A stretch of DNA of 62,884 nucleotides, filler included, from Rhabdomonas costata (taxonomy: Eukaryota): assembly GCA_019059605.1 (NCBI GenBank). It is 25 parts of 25 records of this genome, joined end to end, with 100 filler letters (N's around TTAATTAATTAA, not from the genome) between each part and the next. Parts side by side here need not be neighbours in the genome. Positions count along the whole stretch, not along the records: positions 2,519 to 4,936 come from JAHMHO010003511.1; 24 more parts are not named here. One strand, written 5' to 3'. Numbering within the stretch: the first letter of the stretch is position 1; every line of letters begins with the position of its first letter. This document shows, piece after piece, positions 3,221-60,630 of this stretch. Under the pieces are notes generated by a model. It was not told where the DNA came from and made no database searches. It worked only from the letters and a program-made list of their open reading frames with translations. The translations under genes were made by a program, and so were the position numbers.

Positions 3221-4918
3221 GTAGAGTCAGAGGAGCAGAAGTCTGACGAACTCTCCGCCAAGCTGATCACGGCTCGGGACGCAGTGAAGACGGCGCGGAC
3301 CAACATGGGCGGGGTCAACGTCACCCGAGATGGCAACAATATGATAGCAAATCAGGCATCTCTTTTGCTGCTCCCTTCGCACGAAAGTTGCAGGAAGCAA
3401 GAGCTCTGTGGTCCACGAATTGCCATAGTCCTCAACTCTGGCGCTCACACGACGCATGCCCTCGTATTCAAATCGGTGGAAGTGTGCATTGGGCGCACAG
3501 CTCACTCACGGTTGCGAAATCAGTGGGTTGCTTCAGGTATCGTTTTTCTAAAGCTCGTTCCACCGTAAATTCAGAACCACGGAATTCATGGTTTATTGAC
3601 TGTTTTATACTCTTCAAGCAAAAAAACCTGCCCGTGCGAGACTACGCGCCACGTGCGATGTGGTGGCATTCCAGACGGGTGCAAAATTCGAAATTTTCTC
3701 GCGTAGCAACACAAAACAAGACCTTTTTTATACTGGGGCGAACGAAAATGGCAGGGGGCATCGGGGGACCATGCAGTCATCCTCTTGAAGAGAATGACAA
3801 TTATATACGGTCTGAGGAGACCAGGTTTAAATGGGTCACATACGTTCCTCTGATAGTCCGCGTTTAACTATCCTTATTTTGTCATGTTATATTCTAGTAG
3901 TGTTGTGCCGACCTTGATGTTCAATAACGACCACGTCTGGAAAACGTCATTTGGCTTGTGCCCGCCACGCTGTGCGGGGCTGCAGAAACCCCGTCCTTGT
4001 GACTTGTGGTGGATAGCCTTCAGGCGCCTCTTGGTGCGGAGTTCAGGGGCTCACAGCCGAAGTCTGGTGTCCTCGGGTTTCCTCGGGGTGGGTTAGGTTC
4101 ACGTGCTGGAGAACCGCCTGGACAAGGCCCTGGTGAAGTTCAATGAAGCCCTGCACATCAACAAGCAGCTGCGGGAGCAGATCGACAGCCTGCGGAGGGA
4201 GCGCGCCGTGTTTGACACGATCTACAAGAAGCTCGAGCGCGAGCTCCAGGAGAAGAAGAAGGAGATGGCCTTCATCATCGAGGCCTGCCCATCACTCTTT
4301 GCTTGCTTTGTCTTTCACCCTCCATCGATGAGTGGACCCCAGCCTTACAGGCCTTAGTTTTGGTGTGCAACCACCGACAGTCCTCTTTTGGTCTTTCGTG
4401 CAGTTTGCACGTGGAGGTAGTCAGCCCTGGAATGTACTGAGGTTTTCAGGTGCAAACATTAGCTCTGCGAAATGGAACCTTTGACCCGGATAGGCCGCGG
4501 AACGATGTCAATGTATTCCTGTGTGTCTTCAGCTCCTGTGTATGTCAGCGCGTTCATTGCAGATAATGGGGCAGCTGTTTGCTGTGCATTCCTGGAGGTA
4601 ACGTTGGTTTTTGTCTCGCCGCCACCGCGCTCACCAGGTCTCCAACATTGCCTACGAGGAGAGGGACAACGCACAGAGCGAGCTCTCGCAGCTCAAACTG
4701 TACGCCTCGAAGGAGCTGCAGAGCTTCGATGAGACCTTCAAGGAGCTTGACGAGCTTCTCGAGGAGGACCGCAAGATGAAGGAGGGCATCCGCGCCCGCA
4801 TGCTGGAGAGCGGGCGGGCCCGTGATGACGCCAAGTCCAAGGCCTCAGGGAGTGCGCTGGAGGACGACCTTCTGGGCACGGGCGGGGGACCCTCCGGGGG
4901 CTCGGGCAAGAAGAAGAA
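3221..4918 (+). CDS. ODAD1: Outer dynein arm docking complex subunit (ODA1/DC2, ODAD1/CCDC114-like coiled coil), partial
   Basis: Exons 3221-3355 (..MGGVNV..ANQ), 4097-4282 (VHVLENRLDKALVKFNEALHINKQLREQIDSLRRERAVFDTIYKKLEREL) and 4638-4918 (VSNIAYEERDNAQSEL) join in frame. Both introns start with GC. Confidence 0.85.
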
Positions 4919-5056
4919 GTGTGCCTTTTCACCCACNNNNNNNNNNNNNNNNNNNNNNNNNNNNNNNNNNNNNNNNNNNNTTAATTAATTAANNNNNNNN
5001 NNNNNNNNNNNNNNNNNNNNNNNNNNNNNNNNNNNNGGGGTTTGTGTTCTTCGCAG

Positions 5057-12300: not shown

Positions 12301-12610
12301 AGCTTCTTCGTACTTATCATCTACCACTATTTGCAATTTTACTTGTATGGTATTGATATAGAGATTATATTATTCCATTTCACAAACCACGTAGCTCAGC
12401 TTGCCATGGAGCACGCGTGGCACACATTTCGTGTTTTCTTTGTGTAACATAGCAGATATACCACTTTACCAACCATAAATTAACTGAANNNNNNNNNNNN
12501 NNNNNNNNNNNNNNNNNNNNNNNNNNNNNNNNTTAATTAATTAANNNNNNNNNNNNNNNNNNNNNNNNNNNNNNNNNNNNNNNNNNNNTTTGTCACATGG
12601 ACAGAACCCA

Positions 12611-17621: not shown

Positions 17622-19364
17622 GAACACGGTAAAATCGACAGCACAGCAAGGCTGCAAGTGCAAAAGTGGACGCCGCAACTGCGTTGACATGCTGCCACGT
17701 ATCCGGATATACGACAAGATCTGTTTTGCACTGTCTTTGATTATTTTCTTATCGAGAAGAACGGGTATGCCAGTAATAGTAGTAACCCAGTAGGGCACCA
17801 CCTTTTAACTTATAAATGAGTCCGACGCTCCTGAGTCAAACAGAGCTCTCACTTGGATCCTCCCAATCCACAACGGTAGAAACAATAGCGGCTGAGGTGG
17901 AGTAGGGTCGGTGGGATTCCAGACGAACCGATCCCCTTCCTTGCCCACTTTTTAAAAGAGCAGCACGAAAAGCGGTACCGGGAAACTTCCCTTGCCACGA
18001 CGGATGCTGCTGACGGCTACCTCCTGCCCTTCTTCTAACCACTCTTCCAATGAAGCATTCTCCGAAATCTCTTCTGTCACAACACTCCATTCAACTGCTC
18101 CCATTTATCTTCCGTGACTTCCTCACTGGATTAATCCAAATGCGTTTCTCATCAGGTCTTGAGCTTTTCTGAAGTCTCAACTCACCAACAGAATTTATCT
18201 CTGCTCTTGCGACAACAGCGCTGTCCTCGCTTATCAACTCAAGCGCTAAACTTGCAATCTTTAGCTTGTCAACCATTATCGACCACTCTCTCTACTCCAT
18301 CGAAAATGACTCCGAAATTTCTCACGACTGCAAACACCAACGTGTTCTTTATCTTTTCATCCACTCAAAGACTCTCCTACGTGTCCTGAGCCGTTGCACG
18401 TCCCCATAATCTGGTGGTATATAACTTTTACTTTGGATATCCTGGAAATCCCCACCGGCCACTTCCCCAACAGGTGTTTGTCGTTCTCTCCGGCCTCCAT
18501 TTTGAGCGGTTGGTACGAAGCCACGGCAGCAAGCGATACATAGGGAGTAGCAGGTAGCATTTTACCCCGCTGCCGTCCATATCTTTCATTACATCACCCC
18601 GCCGCACGTTGAAGATGTCTTGGCTTCATGGAACTCGCGGTAAGGATTGCCACTAGATGTGGTGATGGCAAACTTCGCCTTCAATGGCTATATTCCGTAG
18701 AAACCCATCACCGAAAAATCATCCACTGGATTACAGCTCGATGTTGTGATTCTATCCGTGGTATCTTTCCCTCCACTCGTGTGGATTTTCGCTCCGTGGG
18801 TTTTTTGGGTTTGTGTTTTGCCTTTGGGTTGGTGGTGTCGACGTTGTCATAGCGTGTGTACTGGTTAACGGTTGCAACTCATGTTAGCGCAGGTGACGTT
18901 GAAATATTGGTGACGTGGTTGGTGGATTGGCGTTGTTCTTGGTACGGGATGCCAATGTTTGAATTTAGGGTGAGTTTTATTTTTTGTGACCACGGGCTTT
19001 ATATTCTTTGCGGTATTTTTAATTTCCGATTTGATTCGGGTTTCTCGTCTTACACCGTGGTTTTCCTTTGGGCCGCTGGTAGCGCGAGTTCAGTAGGTAT
19101 TCCAGTGACTTCCTTCGCAATTTTCTTTTGTCTACTGGAAGTGGCATGGTTCAAACGGACGGCGGCAACACTCTGAGAGGCTGTAAGCTTGCACAAAAAC
19201 ATGCCGCTTGACCGGTGAAGTCGGCGCAATTCCAGTGAACACGGTAAAATCGACAGCACAGCAAGGCTGCAAGTGCAAAAGTGGACGCCGCAACTGCGTT
19301 GACATGCTGCCACGTATCCGGATATACGACAAGATCTGTTTTGCACTGTCTTTGATTATTTTCA
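17622..19364 (-). mobile_element. Degenerate LTR-retrotransposon-like element (gag/aspartic protease region) bounded by direct repeats
   Basis: Minus strand ~17895-17808 reads QPLLFLPLWIGRIQVRALFDSGASDSFIS, a retroviral-type DSGA protease motif. The upstream region has broken frames and is flanked by identical 127-bp repeats; the upstream copy starts TGAAAATAATC on the minus strand. Confidence 0.75.
19237..19363. repeat. 127-bp direct repeat, identical to 17622-17748 (LTR-like)
   Basis: gaacacggtaaaatcgacagc...ctgtctttgattattttc is present at both positions; the 17622 copy is cut by the contig edge. Confidence 0.95.
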
Positions 19365-19626
19365 ACGGGCTGCGTGGATAAGGATCTGGTTGCGGGCTTA
19401 GTGCCGGACTTGCGCGGTGTGTGGCCTTACTGTTGGTGAGGGTATGGCTTTGGTTGTGATTGGAATGTATCTGTTGTTGGTTCGTGTTTGTTGGTATGTC
19501 TAGAAGGCTGGCTGGAAGGAAAAGACAGAGAACGTAAAGGATGACAAGCTAAAACCCGCTTACGCCGCTACGCTACAGTCGTGCGCCCCTGTGGGGGACG
19601 GGAAGGCAGTTTTGATACGTTCCCAC

Positions 19627-25158: not shown

Positions 25159-25160
<2 letters not shown>

Positions 25161-25203
<43 letters not shown>
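25161..25203. repeat. (GT)n microsatellite
   Basis: About 21 GT units at the contig start. Confidence 0.97.
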
Positions 25204-25207
<4 letters not shown>

Positions 25208-25377
25208 CGTGCACACGTACATGTGTGAGTCGAGCGTGTTGAGCTCATTGGAGCTGTGGCAAATGCAGCGCTGCTGTCGTCTGGCAGCGGCCCATGTGCT
25301 TGCGAACTGCATAAATGCCCGCAGGCTCGGTGCGGCGCGCGATGCGCCACAACGCAGAGTGTGCACGGCAGGCTAAC

Positions 25378-27177
25378 CTAGAATTTCGCTTAGGGTTGCG
25401 AAGAGCTGCGGCCGGGAGGCCTCCACGCGCAGTCCCGACATGAACGCTGCCAGGACCTTGAGCTGCACATCAGCTCCCTGCGGCGGCGGCGAGGGCTGGC
25501 CCTGGGCGCCCTCTCTCGCCCAGTACACTGCGGAAAAAGCAGTTTGTCAGGAAGGATGTGACCTATATCCCTACCCAACACGGCGGTGGTGGATTCCATT
25601 GTGGAAGAGGGAAGGGAGCGACAATAAGTATGGTGTCCGACGAGGACTTCCAGAGCCTGTCTTTCTGTGCAGGTGTAAACATAGAATAAAGCCCCCACCC
25701 AACCGACAATCGACCCACCGACCCACTCGCGCACTCTTCGTCACCCACCGACGCACTCGCGCACTCTTCTATGAGTACACATTGCCATTTACGGTTCTGA
25801 GCGACAGACAGATAAAGAGAAGGAGAACCCAGCCATCAAAGTGTAGTGTCGATAAGGGAAAAGATTGACAGTCACCGCGAGAGAGGGGTTAAAAACCTCG
25901 GAAAAGATCCACTGCGAGGCCCAGGAACGCAACGCGCAACTCGGCTCTCTTCGGGGAGGTTTTGTCCAGCGCCGTGAGCTGCTCCAGCAGAGCCAGCGCG
26001 TGCTCGGTCCCACCGCCTGTGCCAACGGGCGGCGCCATGGCGGGCTGCTTGGTACCCTCCGAGTCCACGCAGGATGGCCGCAGGCAACCTGCGACGAGAC
26101 TGAACACCTGAGAAGGTGCGGGTGGGCATAACAAGAACTCTTTCGGATTTGTAGAACATGGAAGTGAAGAAAGGAAGGAAAAGAAATGTAGAAGCAGTAA
26201 TACACCCGAAAATGTGAATGTCAAGACGAGATGTCATAGCACACAGCGAGCGCTTTCATGGTCCTGCTGTGCAGTGTCCTGCTCTGAGCCACTGGTATTC
26301 TCTTTATGTGGCCCGAGGCAAATTTTCCTGCGGGGTTTCGCTTTGTCCCTAACCCGAGGCCCCGATAAAGGGCCGGAGTTGGAGTTGGAAGCTGATAATT
26401 GGATATTGTTGTCTGGTTCGCCTTGGGGATTGGCCAAATCACCAACTCCCACACTGTTGTGCAGTTTCTTGGTCCACGTGTCGTTCCAACTCAAAGCAGG
26501 ATCGCAATACTCACACTGAGATGGGGAGGACGGGAGGGGTGCGTGTGTGTATTGTTGAAGAATGTGAAGATGTAAAACATCTTCACATTCTTGGTCACAC
26601 AGTCTGATGTTTAACTTGCGATCCAAGCAAAAGGAAAAGAAAGAAAGACAGCGAATAGTACAGGGAGGGATTCGAGGAGGGATGCAAACAAGAAGGCACC
26701 GGGATGCAAACAAGAAGGCACCAACACCGAGTCCAATGCAACTTTCACATCATTTCGATTCCCAGATACACCCAAACCAGCGATTACACACCTCAAGCTT
26801 ACACACACGGCGGGGGCAAAACCATGCAGCAGCAGTAGAATCCTGTCATGCAAAAGCGTGAGAAAATGGAAATGTGTTTCAAGGTGGGCGGCCGCTTGAT
26901 AACCCCATTATCCGTCTGGGTCTGTACAGCATCATTCAGAAAATGCTGAAGTAGAGGCCTTCGGTCTGCTTGAGGCTGTCAAGGCTGGTACCGTCCTTTC
27001 GAAAAGCAGGCGTCATCACGCGCCCCAGCAGACCTTCAGCAGAACCGTCTCGTCGGTGCACTCCTTGAGCAGCTGCTGTAGCCTGCGGAAGTGCAGCCTC
27101 AGTACCTCCGCCGGAGAGGCCCGCAGGCTGACAATGTTCAGCACCGCCAGCAGACACTCCCGAAGCGCAGTGTAGGC
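25378..27177 (-). CDS. TRRAP: TRRAP/Tra1-like HEAT-repeat scaffold, partial
   Basis: In-phase exons 27177-27034 (LQQLLKECTDETVLLK), 26107-25897 (ELRVAFLGLAVDLFR) and 25527-25378 (VQLKVLAAFMSGLRVE..LF) resemble consecutive Tra1 blocks (LIEKSPD.KIL / EL...FL.LV..VYR / KLE.AFLSGLR). Confidence 0.58.
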
Positions 27178-27591
27178 CTTCGCAGGCAAACACATACACC
27201 CACCCACACACACACTCTCTCAGTCGCTCGCTCGCTCGCTGTGTTGACGTGAATAAGCCGCTATAAGTTTCGGCGCCACCCCAACTGAACCTTTTCTTAC
27301 CTCTCCGGTAACAGAGCCCGAAACGACGACCTCTTTCACTCTCGTTGATGGGCAAGGAATGAAGTTGCAGCGCGCGTGAATGCGAGGAAAATCTTTTCTG
27401 TTTCCATCTTTTCACGCCTGGTTCCATCCATCCTCATTTTCTTCTGTCCCAAGTTAAAAAAGCCGCGCACACATATGAACTGAAATTACACACACAATTG
27501 ACCTCTTCTTTCAGCCCTCTCTGTCCCCCATATAAATCCAAAACACGTGAATTCAGATCCACACACACATAAGCACACAGCACAGGTTGTC

Positions 27592-27660
27592 TGCATCCAC
27601 AACCCTTGGAGTACTTTTTGAGAGGTTGTAAAAAAAAATACTCCAAGGGTTGTGGATGCA
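27592..27660. repeat. 22-bp perfect inverted repeat at contig end
   Basis: tgcatccacaacccttggagta ... tactccaagggttgtggatgca. Confidence 0.93.
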
Positions 27661-28976
27661 CACAACCACNNNNNNNNNNNNNNNNNNNNNNNNNNNNNNN
27701 NNNNNNNNNNNNNTTAATTAATTAANNNNNNNNNNNNNNNNNNNNNNNNNNNNNNNNNNNNNNNNNNNNGCACTGCCAGCAGTCAGGAAAGAAGTACGCA
27801 ACAAAAAAGGAAGAGAATTACAGAGCTGCCCAGAAAAGTGACAACAACAACAAACCCCAGGGAGGCTAAGCAGGACAGGGAGGGGGGACTGGCCTCCGCT
27901 TCGCCCAAAGCGATTCTTTCCGAAATTTCGCTAGCTTCACAAAAAACAATCAAAATAATTCAATTTTTTCAGTTATCATCCATTTAAGAGAATGGAACTT
28001 CCTGTTTTTGTCCGTTTGCAATGGTTCCAGCAAGACTGCGGAAAGGAACAATCAGCCTTTTGAGCACAACAGGATGGGGGAGGATGACATAATGCCTTTC
28101 GTTATTTTTGCAACCTCGCCTTGTATTTGACAGGCGGCAATCCTGACCATAAAGGGATCCGGAAACCGCGGTGCAAAACGTACTTCGGATTTCACTATGC
28201 TTTCTTCGTCCGGAAGCAGAAGCAAAAAAACACCTGGATACAAAAGGCAGGCTTGCTGTTCACACAAAATAATCAGAGGTGAAGAGAGCGAGACTGACAG
28301 GCCGGCTGACAAATTGGTTGATTAAGTGAGTGAGTGACCGAGAGTGCCACATAAAGATGAGAAGAGAACGAGGTCACCACAGACAGCCAACAATCTGAAG
28401 CACCACAGCTGTCGAAGAAGTCAGGGTCAGAGGTCATGTACATGTAAGAATTGGCAAGCACACAACCGTTTCACCGTTGAAAAAAGAGTGGGGAACACGG
28501 CAACTGCACAGAAAAACACATTAAAAAAAGGTTTGCGAAGGCGTTGAGGGGGGGGGGTACAGATCACGATGCAGCGCAAAAATCAACTGCGCTGAGAAGA
28601 CAAAGCACTTGTTGAAAATGGGGGGTGCGGGTCAGAATAGAGTGACCTTGAAAACATTCCTAAGTGCTACCAAAAAAACTGGATCTGGATGTAAAAAGGA
28701 AAAGCGGGACTTGCCTGAGTATATAGGGATGAGAGCAAAAGGTACGTGGCTTCAGAGGTCGAGGGTGGCAACGTAAGGGGAGAGCCAGCATTTGCTTTTA
28801 TCACTTGTCAACTAAGTCTTTTCGGTTGGGATGGGCATGGGGAGAAAAGATAGAGAAAAAGAAACAGGAAAAAAGAACGGGTGGAGGCAATGAAGGGGAA
28901 TAGACGAGAGAGTGTATGTGCGTGTGTGAGTGAGAGGGCATTAGGGATGAGCCCAGCCGTAGATCCACAAAAACAC

Positions 28977-35487: not shown

Positions 35488-37189
35488 CTGACCAACGTCA
35501 TAATCGCGTCCATGTTGCTGGTGCACAGCATGCAGGGGCTCCCCGAATAGCCCAGGGCACACTGAGGTGAACCAAACGAGACAGTGAACGATTACGCATG
35601 TGCGAGTGGGACGGTGTTTTTGGGACAGCGAATGCACAAACGTACAAATAAATTTCCTTTTGAATGAATTTTCTTATGTTTTTCCGGCCTTTACGCCAGC
35701 TTCTAGGCGCTGCCGTAAAAGCAAATCGAAAGAGGAATGCACGCAGGTCCAGGAGAAGCTGAGGAGCGAGCCAGACGCACCTGAGCACAAATCGGACCCT
35801 GGTAGCCCACCTGAGAATGGGGCAGCAGACAGGCGTAGGGGAAGCACTCTGCCAAACCCCCTCCGGAGCCCAATTCCCTTCCAACCGGACTCAAGCCCCA
35901 AAGGAAGGGACGGGATAGATCATAGGGATACAGTCCAAACATCTTTCCCATCAAGGGAACCAATTGCTTCCTTCATTCCCAAAACTAGCTACCAACCAAG
36001 AAAGTTCCAACAAATATGACAGCAGAAACCGAAGACCACACATCTAATTGCCAGGAATAGCGGTGTTGTGGTACAGAAACTCTAAATGCTCCCAACATCC
36101 GCAGTTGCAGTGGCTTCGTTTGCTGACAACCCGCCGCCCTTCTTCACTCTTCTATCCTGCCAGAGCAAGAAGATATAGGGGAAGTTTTGCTTGCTTTTTT
36201 ATGGGGTGGGAGTGTTAAACCTTAAAGGAGACCTACTTACAGCATCTCAACTACTTGCATCAACCAAGACTCGGGATTCGGGGCAAGGGTTTTGTCGTCC
36301 TGGGAAATGACAGGCACAGCCTGTCTCATAGCCTCCCATTGTGATCATGCCTGGGATGAAAAGATGCGTGAGAAATTCACCCTTCACTCGTCAATTAGCA
36401 GTGCAACAAACTAAGAGAGGACGGAGCAGTGCGTATAACTAACGTTTTTCACCTTCTCCTCCAGACCAGAAAGTGAGAAAGAGGAGGAAAATCCGGGTGC
36501 AGGTGGTAAGGGGTGCGGATTCAAGCCTTGCAGGTGCCGGTGAGGCTGGGCCCCAGGCAAGCCCCACTGGTAGTGCACTGGTAGATGTAGTGGCAGCTCT
36601 CGCTGGCCCGCCAGTACCCGTCCTGCACCAGCACGGTGACGTTGCCAAAGCACACGGCGTGACTGGGGCACGCCTGGCACTGAGTGGTGCCTTCAACGGC
36701 GTACTCCCCTGACACCACCGCCCCCCCCCCTCAAGTAGAAGAAGCATCGGACCCTTTACATTTGTAAAGAAAAGAAAAAAGCCCAAACGTCCACTTCCCG
36801 CCGAAAACCGTGAGCCTTACTCCCAGTGTTGCTGTGCAATTGTGCGTGATTTTCCAAAATAAAATCGGTCGGCTCTTAACCTTTTTGCAATGGCAAAAAA
36901 GCCATGTGTGCGTGCTGGCAACATGGCAGATGTGGATTTCTTGGATCAGATATCTTCTCCAAACAACCAGACACAGACATACAAATGCAGGCTTCGAAGA
37001 CGAATATGTGTGGGTTTGGGTGCAAAGCCGAAGCGGGTCTGGAGGGGGGCGTATGCACCCGCTGAGTTTGTTGTGGGCGCCAGACAGGAGCTGACTGTGA
37101 TGGGCCCAAACGTAATATTCTTCAGCATCCCGTAGCTATCGGCGAAGGTGAGCATGTAGGTCGTGCCTTGCAGGCCCACCAGAACAAGC
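35488..37189 (-). CDS. Cys-rich surface/membrane protein, partial
   Basis: Exons 37189-37059, 36708-36527 (CQACPSHAVCFGNVTVLVQDGYWR..IYQC...AC) and 35561-~35488 (CALGYSGSPCMLC); this pattern is common in protist Cys-rich transmembrane proteins. Confidence 0.7.
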
Positions 37190-45105: not shown

Positions 45106-45172
45106 CTGGGCACGATATATCCCATCCCCTTAGGGCCACACGGACGGAGGCAAGGGGAAATTCCGTGGGAAT

Positions 45173-45291
45173 GTGTGTTACAAAAATTAACCTCATTTTG
45201 TCCTTCTGGGGGGCGCCAATCGTCAGGGGTTTCCCCGGAAATGGATGGGGCCCCCCAGAAGGACAAAATGAGGTTAATTTTTGTAACACAC
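45173..45291. repeat. 42-bp perfect inverted repeat at contig end
   Basis: gtgtgttacaaaaattaacctcattttgtccttctggggggc (45173-45214) pairs with 45250-45291. Confidence 0.95.
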
Positions 45292-45394
45292 CCCNNNNNN
45301 NNNNNNNNNNNNNNNNNNNNNNNNNNNNNNNNNNNNNNTTAATTAATTAANNNNNNNNNNNNNNNNNNNNNNNNNNNNNNNNNNNNNNNNNNNN

Positions 45395-47753
45395 TTTTTT
45401 GGGTACTACGCCCCTTGGCAGGGGTGGACGGTGTACGGCTCGCTGGGGGCCTCGGGCACCTTCTCGGCGTACAACTCCGAGGATGTCGCCACCCCAGAGC
45501 TGCTCTCGATGCCGTGGACGGTGGGGATGAGCGGAACTGCCTCGATCCCAGCCAACACCACCGTTGAGGTGCAAGCAGTCTGCGCAGGCATGTCGGAGGA
45601 GGGAAGCAAGCGGAGTGGGGTGGTGGTGATTGGGAGGAGTTAGAGAAGGGAGAAATCCGCACAAAACGTGAACCATGGCGTGAAATGTAAGAAGGTAACC
45701 ATGCCTAACGCGGTTCACAGTGGTGTTTTTCTCTCTCAAGTGAGGAACTCCCTTTGGGTCCCCATTGGGGCTTGTGAGCTTGTTTGGTAACCCTTTGGCA
45801 CTTTCTCACCTCCCAGTTTTTGGTTGGCACGGGCCGACTCCAGGCACTTTGCGGCACACGAGTTCAGATGAGAGGGAATCGCCAGAAAACCGAGACATTC
45901 TCCACCTTAGCCAGCGCTCAGCGCACGATTTCACACGCAGATGACTTGCACCTGCTGCTGCCGTCCCCCTTCCCCGATGCAGGGTCGGCCCTGTTTTACA
46001 AATGTAAAAAAAAAGTGCGAACAAAAATTGCGTATTGTAAAAAAAATCCTGGATGACCGAGTGGGTGGAGCGGGGACCCTGAAAATCGCTAGCTTTGTAG
46101 CTGGTGCTCGCCCCCCCCCCCAATCCCCCGAGGAACAGTCCGTGGTGCCCTCTAATGCCTCCCAGGTCTTGTCAGGTTTTTCCCGGAACTGACTGCTCGG
46201 AAGGCGCAAGCCACCGCCACCGCTCCCATACATAGTCAGTGTTCTGAAGCATTTATCGCGTATGCTGTTTGTGTGTATGTATGTATGTATGTATGTGAGT
46301 GCGTGCGCGTGTGCTTCGCATCCATGCAATCCGTCTCATGTATCAGAACAAGCCTGCTCCTCGTGTGCCAAGGCCCGGCTCGACGCTCTGCTAGACAGTG
46401 CGAGAGATGCCTTCCGGGGCTTGGTGCAGCCCTTGGAGAACCGAACCCTCGCGGAGTCCTCCCGTCTGAAGGGCAGCGGGGTCCTCCGCCTCAATGCGAT
46501 CACGGCAATGCAGAACTTCAATAACACCATGATCACCGTGGAGCTGTTCTCTGACCTGCGGGACAGCTTGTACCTGACCTCGTCTACCTACACCCTGGTC
46601 ATGCATCCCTCGCTGAGGTTCGGTTGTGCCCCACGCTCACAGAGCTGGGTGCATGCCCAAATGAGTCGGACACCCTGCGAGCATACCGTCTTGCTGCCTC
46701 TTTTTATCTTTTTTCACCGCTTGTACAGTTCTAATCTTGCCCTCTCCCTTCTTTGCCCCCGCAGTCCCATTCGTTCGCATCTCTCCACCTCCCCTTCCCC
46801 TCGTCCTCGCCCCGTGTTAGCATTTGATCTGCAGCTTTGTGCTCGACGCTGGACATCCGTGTCTTACAAGTGAGGGTGTTGTAGGGAAGTGGTTAGGTGG
46901 TGTTGGCCACTGCTGCCTTCGGGAGGGAGGGGGGGGGGTGCTGCGCTCCAAGCCCTTTTCCTTTGTGCAGCAACCCCGGGCCCTCTGGGGTGAGCTGGCT
47001 CTTGCAGTCGGAGTACTTCCGGTTCAACTTCGACCTCCTCAGAAACGTCGCGGAGCCCATGGTGTACCTCACGGAGATCATGCCCAATGAGCACTACAAC
47101 GCCAGTGTGCTCCGGTACTACGTCGTGGACCAGGTCTCCGGCGCCAAGATGATGGTGATATTCCAGCAAACCATTCCCCTGGCCAACAACACTGGAAACA
47201 CAAGCCGCCCGGAGTTCTTTGCCTGGAGGAACGAGCTGGTGTGTATGTGTGTCTGGATCACGGACAGGCCTGTGCACATGCGCGAAGCCTCCCTCCCATC
47301 AGTGTCCCGCTTTCCCTAGAGCTTTTTCGGCTGCTTCCCTTTTTTTTTAGCTGAGCAGCATTCGTGAAACAGGGGCAGGCTCCTGACTGAATACCCTCAC
47401 TTTTCGCGTCTAGCCCGTCAGAACGTCAGTCGGGGGCGTTGCTCTGTGACCCTTATTTAATGGAAAAAGTATTTTGACTCCGCGGGTGTGCCTGTGCTGG
47501 AGCTGGACTACGGGGTCCCGGCCGAGGACCAGTCCACCTTTCACCTCCTCGCCAGCGGAACGAGCATCCAAAGCCTCAGCTCCACGCTGCGGGGCCTGCT
47601 CAGTGGGCTCAGGCAGAGGCTGTTTGCGTTCCTAGCCACCCCCGAAGGGACCCTCCTGGGGGCCTCCCATGGAAAGCTCTTCTCTCACAGCGATGTGAAC
47701 TACAGCGGCAACAATCCTTTCACCAACCCCCCACCGGTGGCCAACTTCCAGAG
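45395..47753 (+). CDS. Receptor ectodomain (Cache-like, many N-glycosylation sequons), partial
   Basis: In-phase exons 45395-45568, 46373-46617, 46971-47238 and ~47503-47753. The motif LSSTLRGLL...AFLATPEGTLLGASHG parallels MYLVDRTGLLLAASH in the 38488-40067 gene. Confidence 0.68.
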
Positions 47754-47908: not shown

Positions 47909-50178
47909 CTGCGAGGCCCTCTCCACGGAAGTGGTGATGAGGCTGACCACGGAGTATTTCCAGAGCATGTGCAGCGTGATCGTGGCCAACGGGGGGACCC
48001 TGGACAAGGTGTCCTGGGCTTCTGGGCTTGCTCTTGCAGCGATTGTTTTTGCCATGTCGTCTCTGCGATCGTCGGCGTTTTTTCGGTCGGACATCTCTTC
48101 TGTACATTGCAAGGCCTTCCGTCCGTTTTATGCGTTTTCTTTGTGGTGCCGTTGTGAGGAGCTTCGAGCCCGTGCCAATGGATGATGCTCTGGGTTGGGT
48201 TGTAGTTCATTGGGGACTGCATCATGGCGATCTGGAACGCCCCCAAGAGTCTCCCGCACCACGAGCGGGCGGCTTGCCAGTCCGCGGTGCAGATGCAGAC
48301 CGCTCTGGTGGCGCTGTGCGAGCGGTGGGCCGAGGAGGGCATCCCGGAGATCCGGTCCCCGTGCTTGCTCATTCACTCCCGCCCCTCCGCCCGCGCCGCA
48401 TTCGTTCGGACGCAGGGCCGTTGCGAAGGATCCTTATTGTGGGACAAAACGCCGGTGCCGGTGTAAGAGGCTGTGGGGCTGCCCCTTTTGCGCAGTGGGC
48501 GTTGCACACTTTTCCCCAAATATCCACGCTCTGCAAAAGTAGTGGCAGGACGAAAGGCGTATTCCGTGAACGGTTTTTGGTGATAAACCAAGAATGACCC
48601 TTTTCTCTAAACGAGGGCCAAGGAGGGAATTAGGAGATCTACGTTTTGTGTGGGTCATCCTCTGACCTATCCAAAGGGACTTGCGCATTGCAAGGTCAGG
48701 TCCCCTGGAAACGAGAGAGTGACATAATCTCGGATCCAGGCTCGAGCTGGGCCACGAACTCCCGCACTACCACTTTTTCAGTCTTCCCACCTTCTCGTCA
48801 CTACGAAGAAAAATAAGAGAAATAGAGAAAGAGAGGGAGGAAAGGCTGGCCCGGTTGTGCGTTGAGTTATCCCGTCGGCTGTTGCACCCCACACACACAC
48901 ACACTCACACACACTCTCACACACAGCGGGCGTTGGCTGTGGGTTTCTTCCTCCCGCCTCACAGGTTTCGGATTGGCCTGAACACTTCCCGGGTGATGCT
49001 AGGGTGTGTCTGTCTCTCTGCCCTCCTCCCAACTCTCTGCTCTTGTTCTCCTCTCCTGTTTCTTCTCTCGTAACGTAAGAAATCATCGCTCATTTCCCCC
49101 TCTTCGAACTCCAGAAGGGAGCGTCTGCAGGCCCGTTGGCCTGCTGAAAGCGAACTGGAACTAGACTGCGAAACGTCGCAGCAGTTCTTCAATTCCGTTT
49201 TTTCTCTTACTGTCTTACAGGAACTACGGCTGCGAGTTCCGCGTCAACTATACAGTGCTGGGTATGCGTTTTAGTTTTACACAAGTGGGGATCGCGCGAC
49301 AAGATGCGGGGGCGGGTATTGTTATTTGGTTTTCTGGTGTCCAACGGGTTTCAAGTAAAAAGTAAACAGCTCCAAAGCACTGTTAAGGAATCACTGTGGT
49401 GCACACACCTGTGCGCACTTGTCATCAAAATCGCTACTATCAGTCTGCTTTCAGACCCAGCCAATTAAATTACGGGACAGAACGCAGGCCGTCTGATTGA
49501 TCGGTTTCCCCTTCTTTTTCCGGTAGCTTAGAGTCGCTACCTCTCCCCTGCAAGCGCAAAGTACCTACAACCTCTCGTGCCTCGTGACAATAGAATACCT
49601 TTGTCTCCAATCAGGCTGCATCTTCCAACCCCAATTTGCAAAACCCACACATCCCGCCTGCCTCGTGGAGCCTTCTGGGCCCTCCTTCCTATTGCAACGC
49701 ACACACGCAGGGGATGGAGTCAACCTTGCGGCCCGGCTTGAAGCAGCGAACAAGGTGGGTGGGTGGATGTGGGTGTGGGTGTTATTTACTGCAGCTGTAT
49801 GAGGTTCCAACAATTTTTGCCTAACTCCAGTTGTCACAGGGAGAACCTGTCACCCAACTGTAGACTCCAGTACCTCTTCTGGGGCGTTTTGCACACGCGC
49901 TCTCGCCATTCATAGGTCTCCAGGGGACTGGAAAGCGTTTCCCATTCTTTGTGTGCTGCAGGAGTTTGGCACGGTAGTGCTGGTGGCGGAGAACACCCAC
50001 CACAAGGCCGGCGGGCTGTTCCTGTTCCGCAAGGTAGGCACGGTGCGGGTCCCGGGCAAGGCCGAGCCCACGGCAGTATACGAGCTGCTGTGCGAGCGGA
50101 GCGTTGTCAGCGGGGTGCCCGAGGCCTACTCCACATTCACCGCCGACGAGTGCATCCAAGCCCTTAGAGTGATCCCAG
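47909..50178 (+). CDS. Class III adenylate cyclase catalytic domain, partial
   Basis: Exons 47909-48008 (GGTLDK), 48206-48354 (FIGDCIMAIWNAP), 48965-49003 (FRIGLNT), 49221-49261 (NYG..RVNYTVLG), 49711-49754 (DGVNLAARLEAANK) and 49962-50178 (VRVPGKAEPTAVYEL). Confidence 0.95.
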
Positions 50179-50618
50179 GCATGTGTGGGTATACCCTCGC
50201 GTATGCGCAACCGCTGAATAGTGTCTGGGGAAAGTCGCGCGATCAGGGGAACGGGTGGTGCCCGGATGATGGAAAAGAGGAATTGAAGTCTTTGCTCCCG
50301 TTGAACCTTTTGANNNNNNNNNNNNNNNNNNNNNNNNNNNNNNNNNNNNNNNNNNNNTTAATTAATTAANNNNNNNNNNNNNNNNNNNNNNNNNNNNNNN
50401 NNNNNNNNNNNNNGTTGTTGTTGCAAAGAAGGCGCGCACATGCCGAGCAAGGGAAGGGGAGTAGACATAGGTACGTTCTCTCCCTTTCTCGGCAGCAGGA
50501 ACAGAGAAAAAGGTTAGAGACGCCATCACAGAAAATTAGAGAACTATTCGTTGAGACATGTTGGCATCCTTCTCTGCAACGAGAGGGCACACATACACAC
50601 GACCGCGCGTACACATGC

Positions 50619-53281: not shown

Positions 53282-54958
53282 ATGGCGACGCATCTTAAGC
53301 ACCGTGCTGAGCGGGTTTTTCTTCAGTTCTCGAGTCTCTGTGGAAAGCCTTCGCTGAGCTTTGCTGAGCTTCTTTCTGAGTTGGCAACTTTTGATATAAC
53401 GTCTGCCTCGTTCTCCTTTCATCAGTGCATGGAATTGGTTGAGTCGAGCACCCATCTGCTCCGAGAGCTTTCGTTCTTTCAGGGCAGTGGGACTGAACAA
53501 AGTTTAGACGTCTTCGCGCGGGTTAAACTCCTTCGTGGCCATCTGTTTGTTTTACAAGGTAGATGCGTACAAGTCCGCCCTGCTGCAGCGTCGGAAAGAG
53601 GAGCTCTGTTCGGTTTTGACCTTCAGACGCTTAGTGAGTTGGCCATCCGTGATGCTGAGGAGGTGCTTCGGCTTCCGCTTCAAAGCCCTGCCGTCTCTGG
53701 ACCTGTCCCGAGCCCGGAACATCCCGTCCCACCCCTTGATGCCAAAAGAGAGGCCTTTCTTCTTCGGATTGTAGCTTCGAGCTTGGGCCTTTCCCACTCC
53801 TTGAGAAAGTTTGTCCTCGACGCACTGCATCACTATCCGACGGATCAGACTTTTATTGGTTATCTCTCTTTTTGTGGAGAGGTGCCACGGCCGTCGCGAT
53901 CTACTTCGGGAGACTTAGCAGAAAAAGGGGACACTTCGACTTCGGCTCAGTCTGTGAAACCCGCAGCTCCCGTCTGTGTGGAGGACTGGGAGTGCACACT
54001 TTGCTCGCGCCTGTTCCTGGATCCTGTCACGACTGCTTGCGGGCACACGTTTTGTCGCTCTTGCTTGGCTTTAGCCCTTGACCACTCCACCACAGGTGAG
54101 CAGGGGCGCGCCCAGTCCTGCCCATTGTGCCGAGGTCCGCTGCACATGGATCCCCATCACCATCCTGTGAGCGTGACCCTGCAGCATCTCATCGAGCAAT
54201 ACCTTTCTGATGAGCTCCAAAAGCGCATGGAAGAAGATGCCCAGGTCCATCACGCCCGGGAAGAAATGGGAGATCCGACTGGGCAAGACGTTACCCTTCC
54301 CTTGTTTGTGTTGAGCTTGGCCTTTCCAATGATGCCTACCAATGGCTTGAACGTTTTTGAGCCTCGATACCGGCTGATGATTCGTCGCTGTTTGGAGGGC
54401 TCTCAAAGATTTGGAATGGTCTCCCATGTGCATGTCGCTCGGTGGGATGAAGAGTGTGCTCAGATTCGGAGTGCAGAGGAAGCAGCCGGTCGGTCCACAG
54501 GTCATGGCATACCCAACTTAGTGGGCTCGATATGCAAGATTACATTTTCTTCTGTGCAGCCGGATGGCCGGATAGCCTTGCAGTACGATGTGGAAGAGAG
54601 ATTTCTTGTGCGGCAGATGTGGGAGCTGGATGGCTACCGCGTGGCCCAAGTGAAGCTTCTGAAAGACCAAGAGACTTCATCTTCAGAGCAGGCGAAGGAA
54701 AAGGTTCATGAGCTTCTCAGTCGTGTTGTTCCGTTAATCCGATTGAGTACCTCCGAAAGGAACCGGATAATCAGCCAGAGCTTTCCTGAGCAACAGTCCT
54801 TGTTTCTGCTTGGGGTGCTAGCATCTGTGCTGGGGGATGAAAGTAGTGCGGAAATTCAGCTTGGGATGATGACCACCAGTTTGGTAGAGAGAGTTCTCCT
54901 CCTGGAAGCTCTTGTTCAGCGAGCCTCTCAGACAAATGCAAGGTGCTCCATAATGTGA
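53282..54958 (+). CDS. LONRF: LON peptidase N-terminal domain and RING finger protein (LONRF-like E3 ligase), intronless, 558 aa
   Basis: RING-HC (CTLCSRLFLDPVTTACGHTFCRSCL...CPLCR) followed by a LON substrate-binding domain (LPLFV..LAFP...LNVFEPRYRLMIRRCLE...FGM; DGR; DGYRVA). Confidence 0.93.
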   Translation: MATHLKHRAERVFLQFSSLCGKPSLSFAELLSELATFDITSASFSFHQCMELVESSTHLLRELSFFQGSGTEQSLDVFARVKLLRGHLFVLQGRCVQVRPAAASERGALFGFDLQTLSELAIRDAEEVLRLPLQSPAVSGPVPSPEHPVPPLDAKREAFLLRIVASSLGLSHSLRKFVLDALHHYPTDQTFIGYLSFCGEVPRPSRSTSGDLAEKGDTSTSAQSVKPAAPVCVEDWECTLCSRLFLDPVTTACGHTFCRSCLALALDHSTTGEQGRAQSCPLCRGPLHMDPHHHPVSVTLQHLIEQYLSDELQKRMEEDAQVHHAREEMGDPTGQDVTLPLFVLSLAFPMMPTNGLNVFEPRYRLMIRRCLEGSQRFGMVSHVHVARWDEECAQIRSAEEAAGRSTGHGIPNLVGSICKITFSSVQPDGRIALQYDVEERFLVRQMWELDGYRVAQVKLLKDQETSSSEQAKEKVHELLSRVVPLIRLSTSERNRIISQSFPEQQSLFLLGVLASVLGDESSAEIQLGMMTTSLVERVLLLEALVQRASQTNARCSIM

Positions 54959-55627: not shown

Positions 55628-56559
55628 ATTCGCGTGGACATCAGCAAGGTGAAGGCTGGTAAGGTTCGCGCCATGCTGAACGACGAGGCGCGGGGTGATC
55701 CTCTTGATTACCCGCTTCGATGGCACTCCAAGGGGCGGCCAGAGTACTTCCAGGCATGTTCCTACCCTTGCGTTGCCCAAAGCACGAGGCGAAAGCTCGA
55801 CACTCACACACCAATACTTCCTTGCTTTAATTGCTGCTCAGCATTCCTCAGAAATTAGCGTGTTCAATGGTTGTGAAATTATGAATATTTTCGATTTAGG
55901 AGATTCAGCAGGTTTTTGGGTTGTAGGGCGCCATCATGTTAGGAATTCGAGTTTGACCGAAGCGCCGTAGAGAAACTCGATGAAACTCGATTTGCACAAC
56001 GAGGTGAGCTTTGCACCATAGGACAAGAACTCACTTTTGCTTCTCAGCTTTGGGATGGGAGAAAAACAGCCCGACCGTTCTTATGCTTTTTTTCGAGATT
56101 TGCTGCGATTTCGGCGATTCAGCGTTCTCTCTCCTCTGCTCACAATTGAGCGAACTACCTTCCACACATTCACCCCCGCACAGCCGAGGGAGAAGTTCGG
56201 CCTTCACACCTTGTTGGCCAATCCCATGCTCCTGATGACCGCCTTTGTCGCTGGGGCGGCCTTCTTGCTTCCCAAACTCGGTGCTTTTCTGTTTGCCTCT
56301 TGACGGAGCCTGGTTGCTGGTTTGCGCGCAGCGAAGTGTGAGTCTGGTGTCTTCTGCCGGGTGGACCGAAAGAATTGCCGGTGGACACGGAAGGACGACA
56401 TTTTCAGATGCTCTGCGCACCCCTTCCGTTTTGCCTTGTGTTTGCGTAGCGGATCAGGATCAGATGAATGAGCAGATGAAGACAATGATGGGGCAACTGC
56501 AGCAAGCCCAAGCCCAGGGGCAGCAGTCCCGGACGCCGCCGCCGGAGTCCTTGCGGTAG
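55628..56559 (+). CDS. EMC7: ER membrane protein complex subunit 7-like, C-terminal part
   Basis: Exons 55628-55753 (IRVDISK..GKVRA..YPL...PEYFQ), 56184-56280 (PREKFGLHTLLANPMLLM...LLPKL) and 56450-56559 (to stop). Confidence 0.85.
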
Positions 56560-60477: not shown

Positions 60478-60630
60478 GGGACGTTTCCGAGTCCGAAAGA
60501 ATAAACTCCGGAAACCACATCTTAGCGCTTCTTTCGGACTCGGAAACGTCCCTTACCCTAACCCTAACCCTAGCGCTTCTTTCGGACTCGGAAACGTCCC
60601 TTACCCTAACCCTAACCCTAACCCTAACCC
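60478..60630. repeat. Hairpin plus tandem 48-bp units containing CCCTAA telomere repeats
   Basis: A 24-bp perfect inverted repeat (60478-60501 / 60529-60552); the unit tagcgcttctttcggactcggaaacgtcccttaccctaaccctaaccc occurs at 60523 and 60571, the second extended by more CCCTAA. Confidence 0.92.

Follow-up and report, generated by a model that had tools for sequence, protein, structure and literature searches.

Consecutive GC-AG introns in an ODAD1/ODA-DC2 gene of Rhabdomonas costata and the sequence context of GC donor sites

The window analyzed here is a 62,884-nucleotide stretch of Rhabdomonas costata DNA, composed of 25 unrelated contigs of ~2.4 kb joined by N spacers. The source assembly comprises 97 Mb in 104,289 pieces and is fragmented, of low coverage and incomplete; the G+C content of the genome is ~51%. 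As listed in Table 1, introns with established or putative GC donors lie in an ODAD1/ODA-DC2 (outer dynein arm docking) gene, in adenylate cyclase genes and in genes resembling those of a cysteine-rich membrane protein and of EMC7. The piece at 25159-27669, which matches G000:C3520, is the sole part of the window that was placed by genome search.

Table 1. Exons, introns and donor sites of the window (a slash marks the exon-intron boundary)
Feature	Position	Strand	Basis
ODAD1/ODA-DC2 exon, CAG end, phase 0	3221..3355	+	exact P0001 match; covered by X5
GC-AG intron, 741 nt, CAG/GCATCT...TTAG/G	3356..4096	+	skipped in X5 contig
Exon, 62 codons, GAG end, flanked by both GC-AG introns	4097..4282	+	P0001 match; covered by X5
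GC-AG intron, 355 nt, GAG/GCCTGC...CCAG/G; weak U1 match (5/10)	4283..4637	+	skipped in X5 and X1 contigs
Exon, then inferred GT donor at 4919	4638..4918	+	P0001 match; X5 piece stops at 4919
Putative GC-AG intron, 716 nt, AAG/GCTTGA, cysteine-rich membrane-protein-like gene	35811..36526	-	stop at +3; homologue P0123 colinear
Candidate GC-AG intron, CAG/GCATGT	45588..46346	+	gene model only (posterior 0.93); phase suits next exon
GT-AG intron, adenylate cyclase paralogue, same codon position as GC donor 50618	49262..49710	+	alignment
Putative GC donor CAG/GCATGT, adenylate cyclase gene; intron reaches contig end	50179..50313	+	paralogue comparison
Putative GC donor TAG/GCATGT, second adenylate cyclase gene; intron reaches contig end	50414..50618	-	intron position common with GT paralogues
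Probable GC-AG intron, 430 nt, CAG/GCATGT, EMC7-like gene	55754..56183	+	frame; U1 match 9/10

Exon 4097-4282 of the ODAD1 gene matches 211 ODAD1/ODA-DC2 proteins, the best match being P0001 (EukProt RCo000500) with 100% identity. This protein contains Pfam ODAD1_CC (E 1.5e-33), and the three exons (3221-3355, 4097-4282, and from 4638 on), once translated, abut in it without a gap, likewise at 100% identity. The 40 homologues displayed leave no space for additional residues at the two joints (one of them terminates at the second). Sequences of four runs (X1, X2, X4, and X5) were aligned to this one contig, in the 3221-4918 region. A single X5 contig joins 3220-3353, 4095-4280, and 4636-4919, with 741 and 355 bases skipped, and a contig of X1, a separate study, shows the joint of the second intron. 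X5 and X1 are not on record as RNA and were taken as spliced RNA from their exon-only coverage. Sequences of X2 and X4 span the donors at 3356 and 4283, and no variant letter is listed there. Each joint allows four equivalent placements, namely AG..TT, GG..TA, GC..AG, and CA..GG for 3356-4096, and AG..CC, GG..CA, GC..AG, and CC..GG for 4283-4637. As GC..AG is the only spliceosomal type among the placements of either joint, with GT..AG in none, and as the contigs are exon-only, both joints read as GC-AG. These two GC-AG junctions are real, and the first-pass annotation was right in placing two consecutive GC-AG introns in one gene, for which no GT reading is possible.

Four further GC donors had been named in that annotation, which also held that exonic AG precedes all of them; this is indeed how the six named sites read, 50179 lying on the + strand. 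Homologues lend support to the putative donors at 50618, 50179, and 36526. In the case of 36526, where a GT reading in the same phase is absent within 45 bases upstream, P0123 is colinear across this joint and also across the next one. Similarity to the paralogue P0121 ends exactly at base 50179, and GT occupies this position in three of three other paralogues; GT is likewise found at the position of 50618 in five of the seven paralogues having this intron. Site 55754 is likely a GC donor, as judged from a frame-consistent reading, and an alternative same-phase GT lies 18 bases downstream. The homology of this gene is weak: the exon following the intron matches Pfam EMC7 at E 0.059, a representative search returned three weak, unrelated-looking matches, and PDB searches gave 0, 0, and 1 chance match. 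Pairing with U1 amounts to 7-9 of 10 positions at four of the six named sites and to 5 of 10 at 4283 and 36526.

The gene model called 66 donors on the window, seven of them GC (the six named sites and 45588). This proportion exceeds a rate of 1% (P 5e-6) and is compatible with 6.3% (P 0.12). Together with the published euglenid values given below, it bears out the earlier claim that GC-AG introns are several times more common than the usual ~1%; the denominator of the original tally, five to six among a few dozen introns, is corrected to these 66 donors. At a GC share of 6.3%, the chance of successive GC introns is 0.004 per adjacent pair, and with ~40 adjacent intron pairs in the window a consecutive GC pair would be met with a chance of ~15%. 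No nonconventional introns were found within the window. Between ordinary GT-AG introns lie very short internal exons (30-44 bases), at 35781-35810 (- strand) and at 48965-49003, 49221-49261, and 49711-49754 (all + strand).

A raised GC-AG share has already been published for euglenids. For E. gracilis, 659 GC-AG vs. 11,527 GT-AG introns are given (5.4%; PMC11170887), and in the R. costata intron table 634 of the 10,095 GT or GC rows are GC-AG (6.3%; PMC8219788). The latter value derives from 4,549 GTAG, 4,912 CTAC, 308 GCAG, and 326 CTGC entries of the supplement, which are whole-word counts over the file, listed per transcript isoform from Exonerate, and maybe not independent of this genome. 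In the text of that paper GT(GC)/AG introns are counted as conventional; the main text, in the parts consulted, is silent on GC and GA fractions and contains no analysis of snRNAs, with no mention of GA-AG, GAAG, GC-AG, or snRNA. Our first ab initio model, self-trained and run on the window and 80 long G000 contigs, returned 7-9% GC; with the GA control at 7% it did not measure the GC share and was rejected for this use. A model with a sharper GC profile gave on 79 contigs 2-3% GC (95% up to 5%), 2-3% GA, 1-2% GG, and 94% GT, and later calls on the 79 contigs comprised 17 GC among 448 donors. Such model-based calls would put the GC share of the long contigs at ~2-4%, below the published one and not separated from the GA control, which itself contains at least one real site. 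In six housekeeping genes GT was found at 29 of 29 introns. We estimate that the genome-wide GC share is likely ~6%, about sixfold over the usual ~1%, with GT dominant at ~94%.

The context of GC donors was followed in the adenylate cyclase family, where alignment to P0121 and P0122 fixed the intron positions in advance and each donor was taken from the base so predicted. From the 87 listed regions 80 were fetched, in list order and blind to donors. Before the count we dropped six rows with a dinucleotide other than GT or GC (GG in one case), judged to be mis-anchored or chimeric, and one wrong-strand chance match. Seven duplicates were merged and rows in which the frame simply continues were left out, so that 113 non-redundant donors remained, 20 of them GC (7/18, 2/61, 0/1, 2/7, 8/22, and 1/4 at the six positions). 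In this one family, with its few distinct exon ends, GC was read at 19 of 60 donors after exonic AG vs. 1 of 53 otherwise (P 1.5e-5), and among AG-ending exons at 19 of 27 donors with A at +3 vs. 0 of 33 without (P 1e-9). All 20 GC donors have A at +3, compared with 25 of the 93 GT donors, and most have T at +4 (15/20) and G at +5 (16/20). Watson-Crick pairs with U1 outside +1/+2 averaged 5.2 for GC vs. 3.9 for GT donors after AG (P 5e-4), and 5.15 of 8 for the 20 GC vs. 3.8 for the 93 GT donors overall. Within a single mixed-end site the AG effect (2/19 vs. 0/42, P 0.09) was not significant. Weak GC donors, or ones lacking A at +3, are found outside the cyclases, as at 4283 (GCCTGC, skipped in X5 and X1), 36526 (GCTTGA), and an eIF4A site (AAG/GCGCGC), and +3 A is thus not obligatory outside this family.

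When the GT or GC label was placed on trees of the upstream exons, five changes were needed among 18 copies and six among 22, with clustering no greater than in shuffles. Many forks are open (9 of 15 in the 18-copy tree, for which a single GC origin is possible, and 16 of 19 in the 22-copy tree); these weakly resolved trees suggest repeated switching between GT and GC at shared intron positions. No clear GA or GG donor was seen at the fixed positions. The family is very large in G000, with 157 exon matches to P0121 and intron positions in common; at such positions several copies are read through without an intron, and some positions are present only in a subset.

U1, U6, and U5 score over the Rfam cut-off in the genome. 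Three identical full copies of U1 start with AACATACCTGG, the complement of CAG/GTATGTT. The pairing with U1 and U6 that the first-pass annotation had proposed to inspect turned out as follows: with the U1 5′ end ACAUACCUG, AG/GCATGT pairs throughout except at +2, and U6 keeps an ordinary ACAGAGA; no GC-complementary U1 variant was present in five DNA matches (three full, two partial without the 5′ end) and three pattern matches from this incomplete assembly. The U5 loop is also ordinary (GCCUUUUAC), keeping GCCTTTTAC. A GC-specific change is absent from U1, U5, and U6. A search of the genome for U11 was empty, as was its control search, which gave no match anywhere, and the U12-type pattern xxATCC (consensus as given in PMC3033335) was seen in none of the GC donors. 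The 3′ ends of GC introns resemble those of GT introns, with a pyrimidine share of 0.42-0.79 (5 GC) vs. 0.47-0.89 (17 GT).

We consider it highly probable that the GC-AG introns are removed by the major (U2-type) spliceosome and that they arose in GT introns by T-to-C changes at +2, tolerated owing to the flanking bases. A T-to-C change at +2 of an existing GT intron would create a GC donor, which would forfeit the +2 pair with a U1 end complementary to CAG/GTATGT. Such a donor would be kept where exonic AG (bound by U1 and probably by U5 loop 1) and usually +3 A, +4 T, and +5 G restore the pairing; GT donors may be loose (GTGTG, GTGCG, GTT...), whereas GC donors mostly could not be. The expected outcome would be a GC fraction near 6%, and more after AAG and CAG exon ends. 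Since U5 loop 1 reads exonic AG as well, the contributions of U1 and U5 are inseparable here; we infer their compensatory role together with the direction and neutrality of the +2 change.

Donors other than GT and GC were also encountered. For a 790-base eIF4A intron (L082:1939-2728, minus strand; G000:C78), GA-AG (AAG/GAATGT) appears to be the sole spliceosome-like reading, and the joint accommodates precisely one residue between chain positions 158 and 160 of 2j0u. At the site of this GA the eIF4A paralogue L198 reads GT, and the intron that follows starts with GC in both copies. In the R. costata supplement GAAG/CTTC occurs 185 times on three sheets, or ~90 rows allowing for repeated sheets (~0.9%), and among its 26 annotated non-canonical rows with read support five are of the GA-AG type (PMC8219788). 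Beyond these supplement rows no euglenid GA-AG introns were found in the open literature, although counts may be contained in the supplementary files of PMC11170887 and PMC12501133; within that scope, we met no counterpart in print for two parts of the present results only, the GT/GC switching among paralogues and the GA tail. A candidate GA-AG intron (CAG/GAATAC) lies in an Ariadne-like ligase gene at L010:3887-4024 (+ strand), with a same-phase GT six bases upstream and a Pfam match too weak to fix the joint. GG donor candidates were called by the model only, at L005 (minus, 5822) and L074 (minus, 1239 and 2887), one of them in a U1-matching context, GAG/GGATGT.

These data leave some room for a tentative, rather doubtful extension, a graded rule by which the second intron base would be near free (T, C, A, perhaps G) in an AG/GNATG context. 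GC at ~6% and GA at ~1% would then shift by point mutation at fixed positions, and redundant families such as the cyclases would drift to the mutational ratio. If true, this would mean a relaxed major spliceosome with the pairing bases of U1, U5, and U6 unchanged, pointing to a change in a protein (U1C, Luc7, or Prp8), a reading undescribed for euglenids in the literature searched.

The first-pass annotation had gone further in proposing that GY-AG is treated as near-canonical. A spliceosome generally blind to T vs. C at +2 would accord with the AG/GCA to AG/GTA ratio of the cyclase family (19:8), the same as that of GCA to GTA in the background (2.34), and with the repeated switching on its trees. 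It does not accord with the near restriction of GC to AG ends followed by +3 A in the same family, nor with the published overall share or the housekeeping introns. On the 79 other contigs the gene model, which recovers 17-18 of 19 known AG/GCA sites (a partly circular figure), called 4-6 AG/GCA vs. 31 AG/GTA, a proportion that differs from that of the cyclases (P 2e-5) and suggests that neutrality at +2 is not general, or else that the model misses GC sites. General blindness at +2 is improbable and as a rule largely refuted. What survives of the proposal is confined to AAG and CAG exon ends in cyclases, where GC makes up about a third of donors.

It is very improbable that the introns described here are euglenid nonconventional or intermediate introns, excised through end pairing and reading GC-AG by chance. 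For R. costata seven nonconventional introns are listed, all of them starting with GC (PMC8219788), one nonconventional intron of E. agilis has GC-AG ends, and short direct repeats let the joints slide. However, the signature 5′-N3CDG ... CHG-N5-6/R (N3CDG/CHG; PMC12501133) was absent from five complete GC and two GA introns in all equivalent placements. End-to-end duplexes were more stable than shuffles in none of the five GC introns (z -0.2 to +1.9, positive meaning weaker), as in 17 GT introns, and the GC introns occupy positions where paralogues have GT-AG. Introner-like spread is a route known from algae with very high GC-AG shares, and the common GCATG starts do resemble a family; yet when 27 non-GT intron sequences or starts were compared all against all by BLASTN, one pair matched, which represents two recent gene duplicates, and GC and GT share the same old positions among paralogues, with no new ones. 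A mobile element with a GC end is therefore hardly credible, the unrelated intron sequences and the lack of end pairing and signature speaking against nonconventional and mobile-element origins alike. A fragmented, low-coverage assembly, a large redundant family, and RNA coverage limited to two of the six named sites, the ODAD1 introns, might raise the suspicion that GC stems from errors of assembly or from mutated donors in dead gene copies, but we give this negligible weight, as identical bases in X2 and X4 and the spliced form in X5 exclude assembly error for the ODAD1 pair, and random decay would not yield +3 A in every GC donor against about a quarter of GT donors, without clear GA or GG donors.

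Removal by the major spliceosome, with +2 changes offset by flanking bases, can be set against described systems. In E. gracilis the consensus GTGTG pairs with U1 via a G-U wobble, which fits the U1 end found here, and only +5 G is prominent in its GC-AG introns, the parts of PMC11170887 consulted holding no exon-side or paralogue analysis; nonconventional introns are in the majority there, in contrast to the present window. Human, plant, and fungal U2-type GC-AG introns also make up for the +2 mismatch to U1 with a stronger match elsewhere in the site (PMC3167603, PMC7072748), but they amount to ~1% of introns, and their preferred GCAAG differs from the GCATG seen here, which follows the euglenid U1. 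Aureococcus (39.6%), Micromonas pusilla (22.2%), and Chlorella (7.7%) likewise have a raised GC-AG share while the pairing base of U1 is unchanged (PMC3033335). Their shares can be far higher, in genomes of 66-70% G+C, whereas GC donors of the present, less GC-rich genome look like scattered point changes. The GA-AG introns of Eurytemora affinis and Oikopleura dioica have an upstream AG and a downstream A, as does the eIF4A intron, but in that set GA exceeds GC (3.2%; PMC7072748), while here GA stays under GC.

A raised GC share, known in euglenids and surpassed by several algae, will not surprise a specialist. It does mean that gene finders for euglenids must accept GC, and to some extent GA, at donors, mainly those after AG, and large paralogue series in which one intron position carries GT, GC, or GA offer a natural experiment on U1/U5 pairing vs. 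tolerance at +2.

Several other features of the window were noted. At 53284-54958 (+ strand) runs a long reading frame, apparently without introns, whose third-position G+C is below that of the spliced genes; its motifs we take to be RING-like and LON-like. The contig at 10072-12488 has 38% G+C vs. 49-57% in the other 24, no exon was called on it, and it is possibly a contaminant or a repeat. Inverted or repeated end segments and strand-flipped exons, a pattern expected of amplification chimeras, were seen at 1-160, 17622-19400, 45150-45294, and 60480-60620, as well as in L178. Runs resembling TTAGGG lie at 12600, 50810, and 60550-60630.
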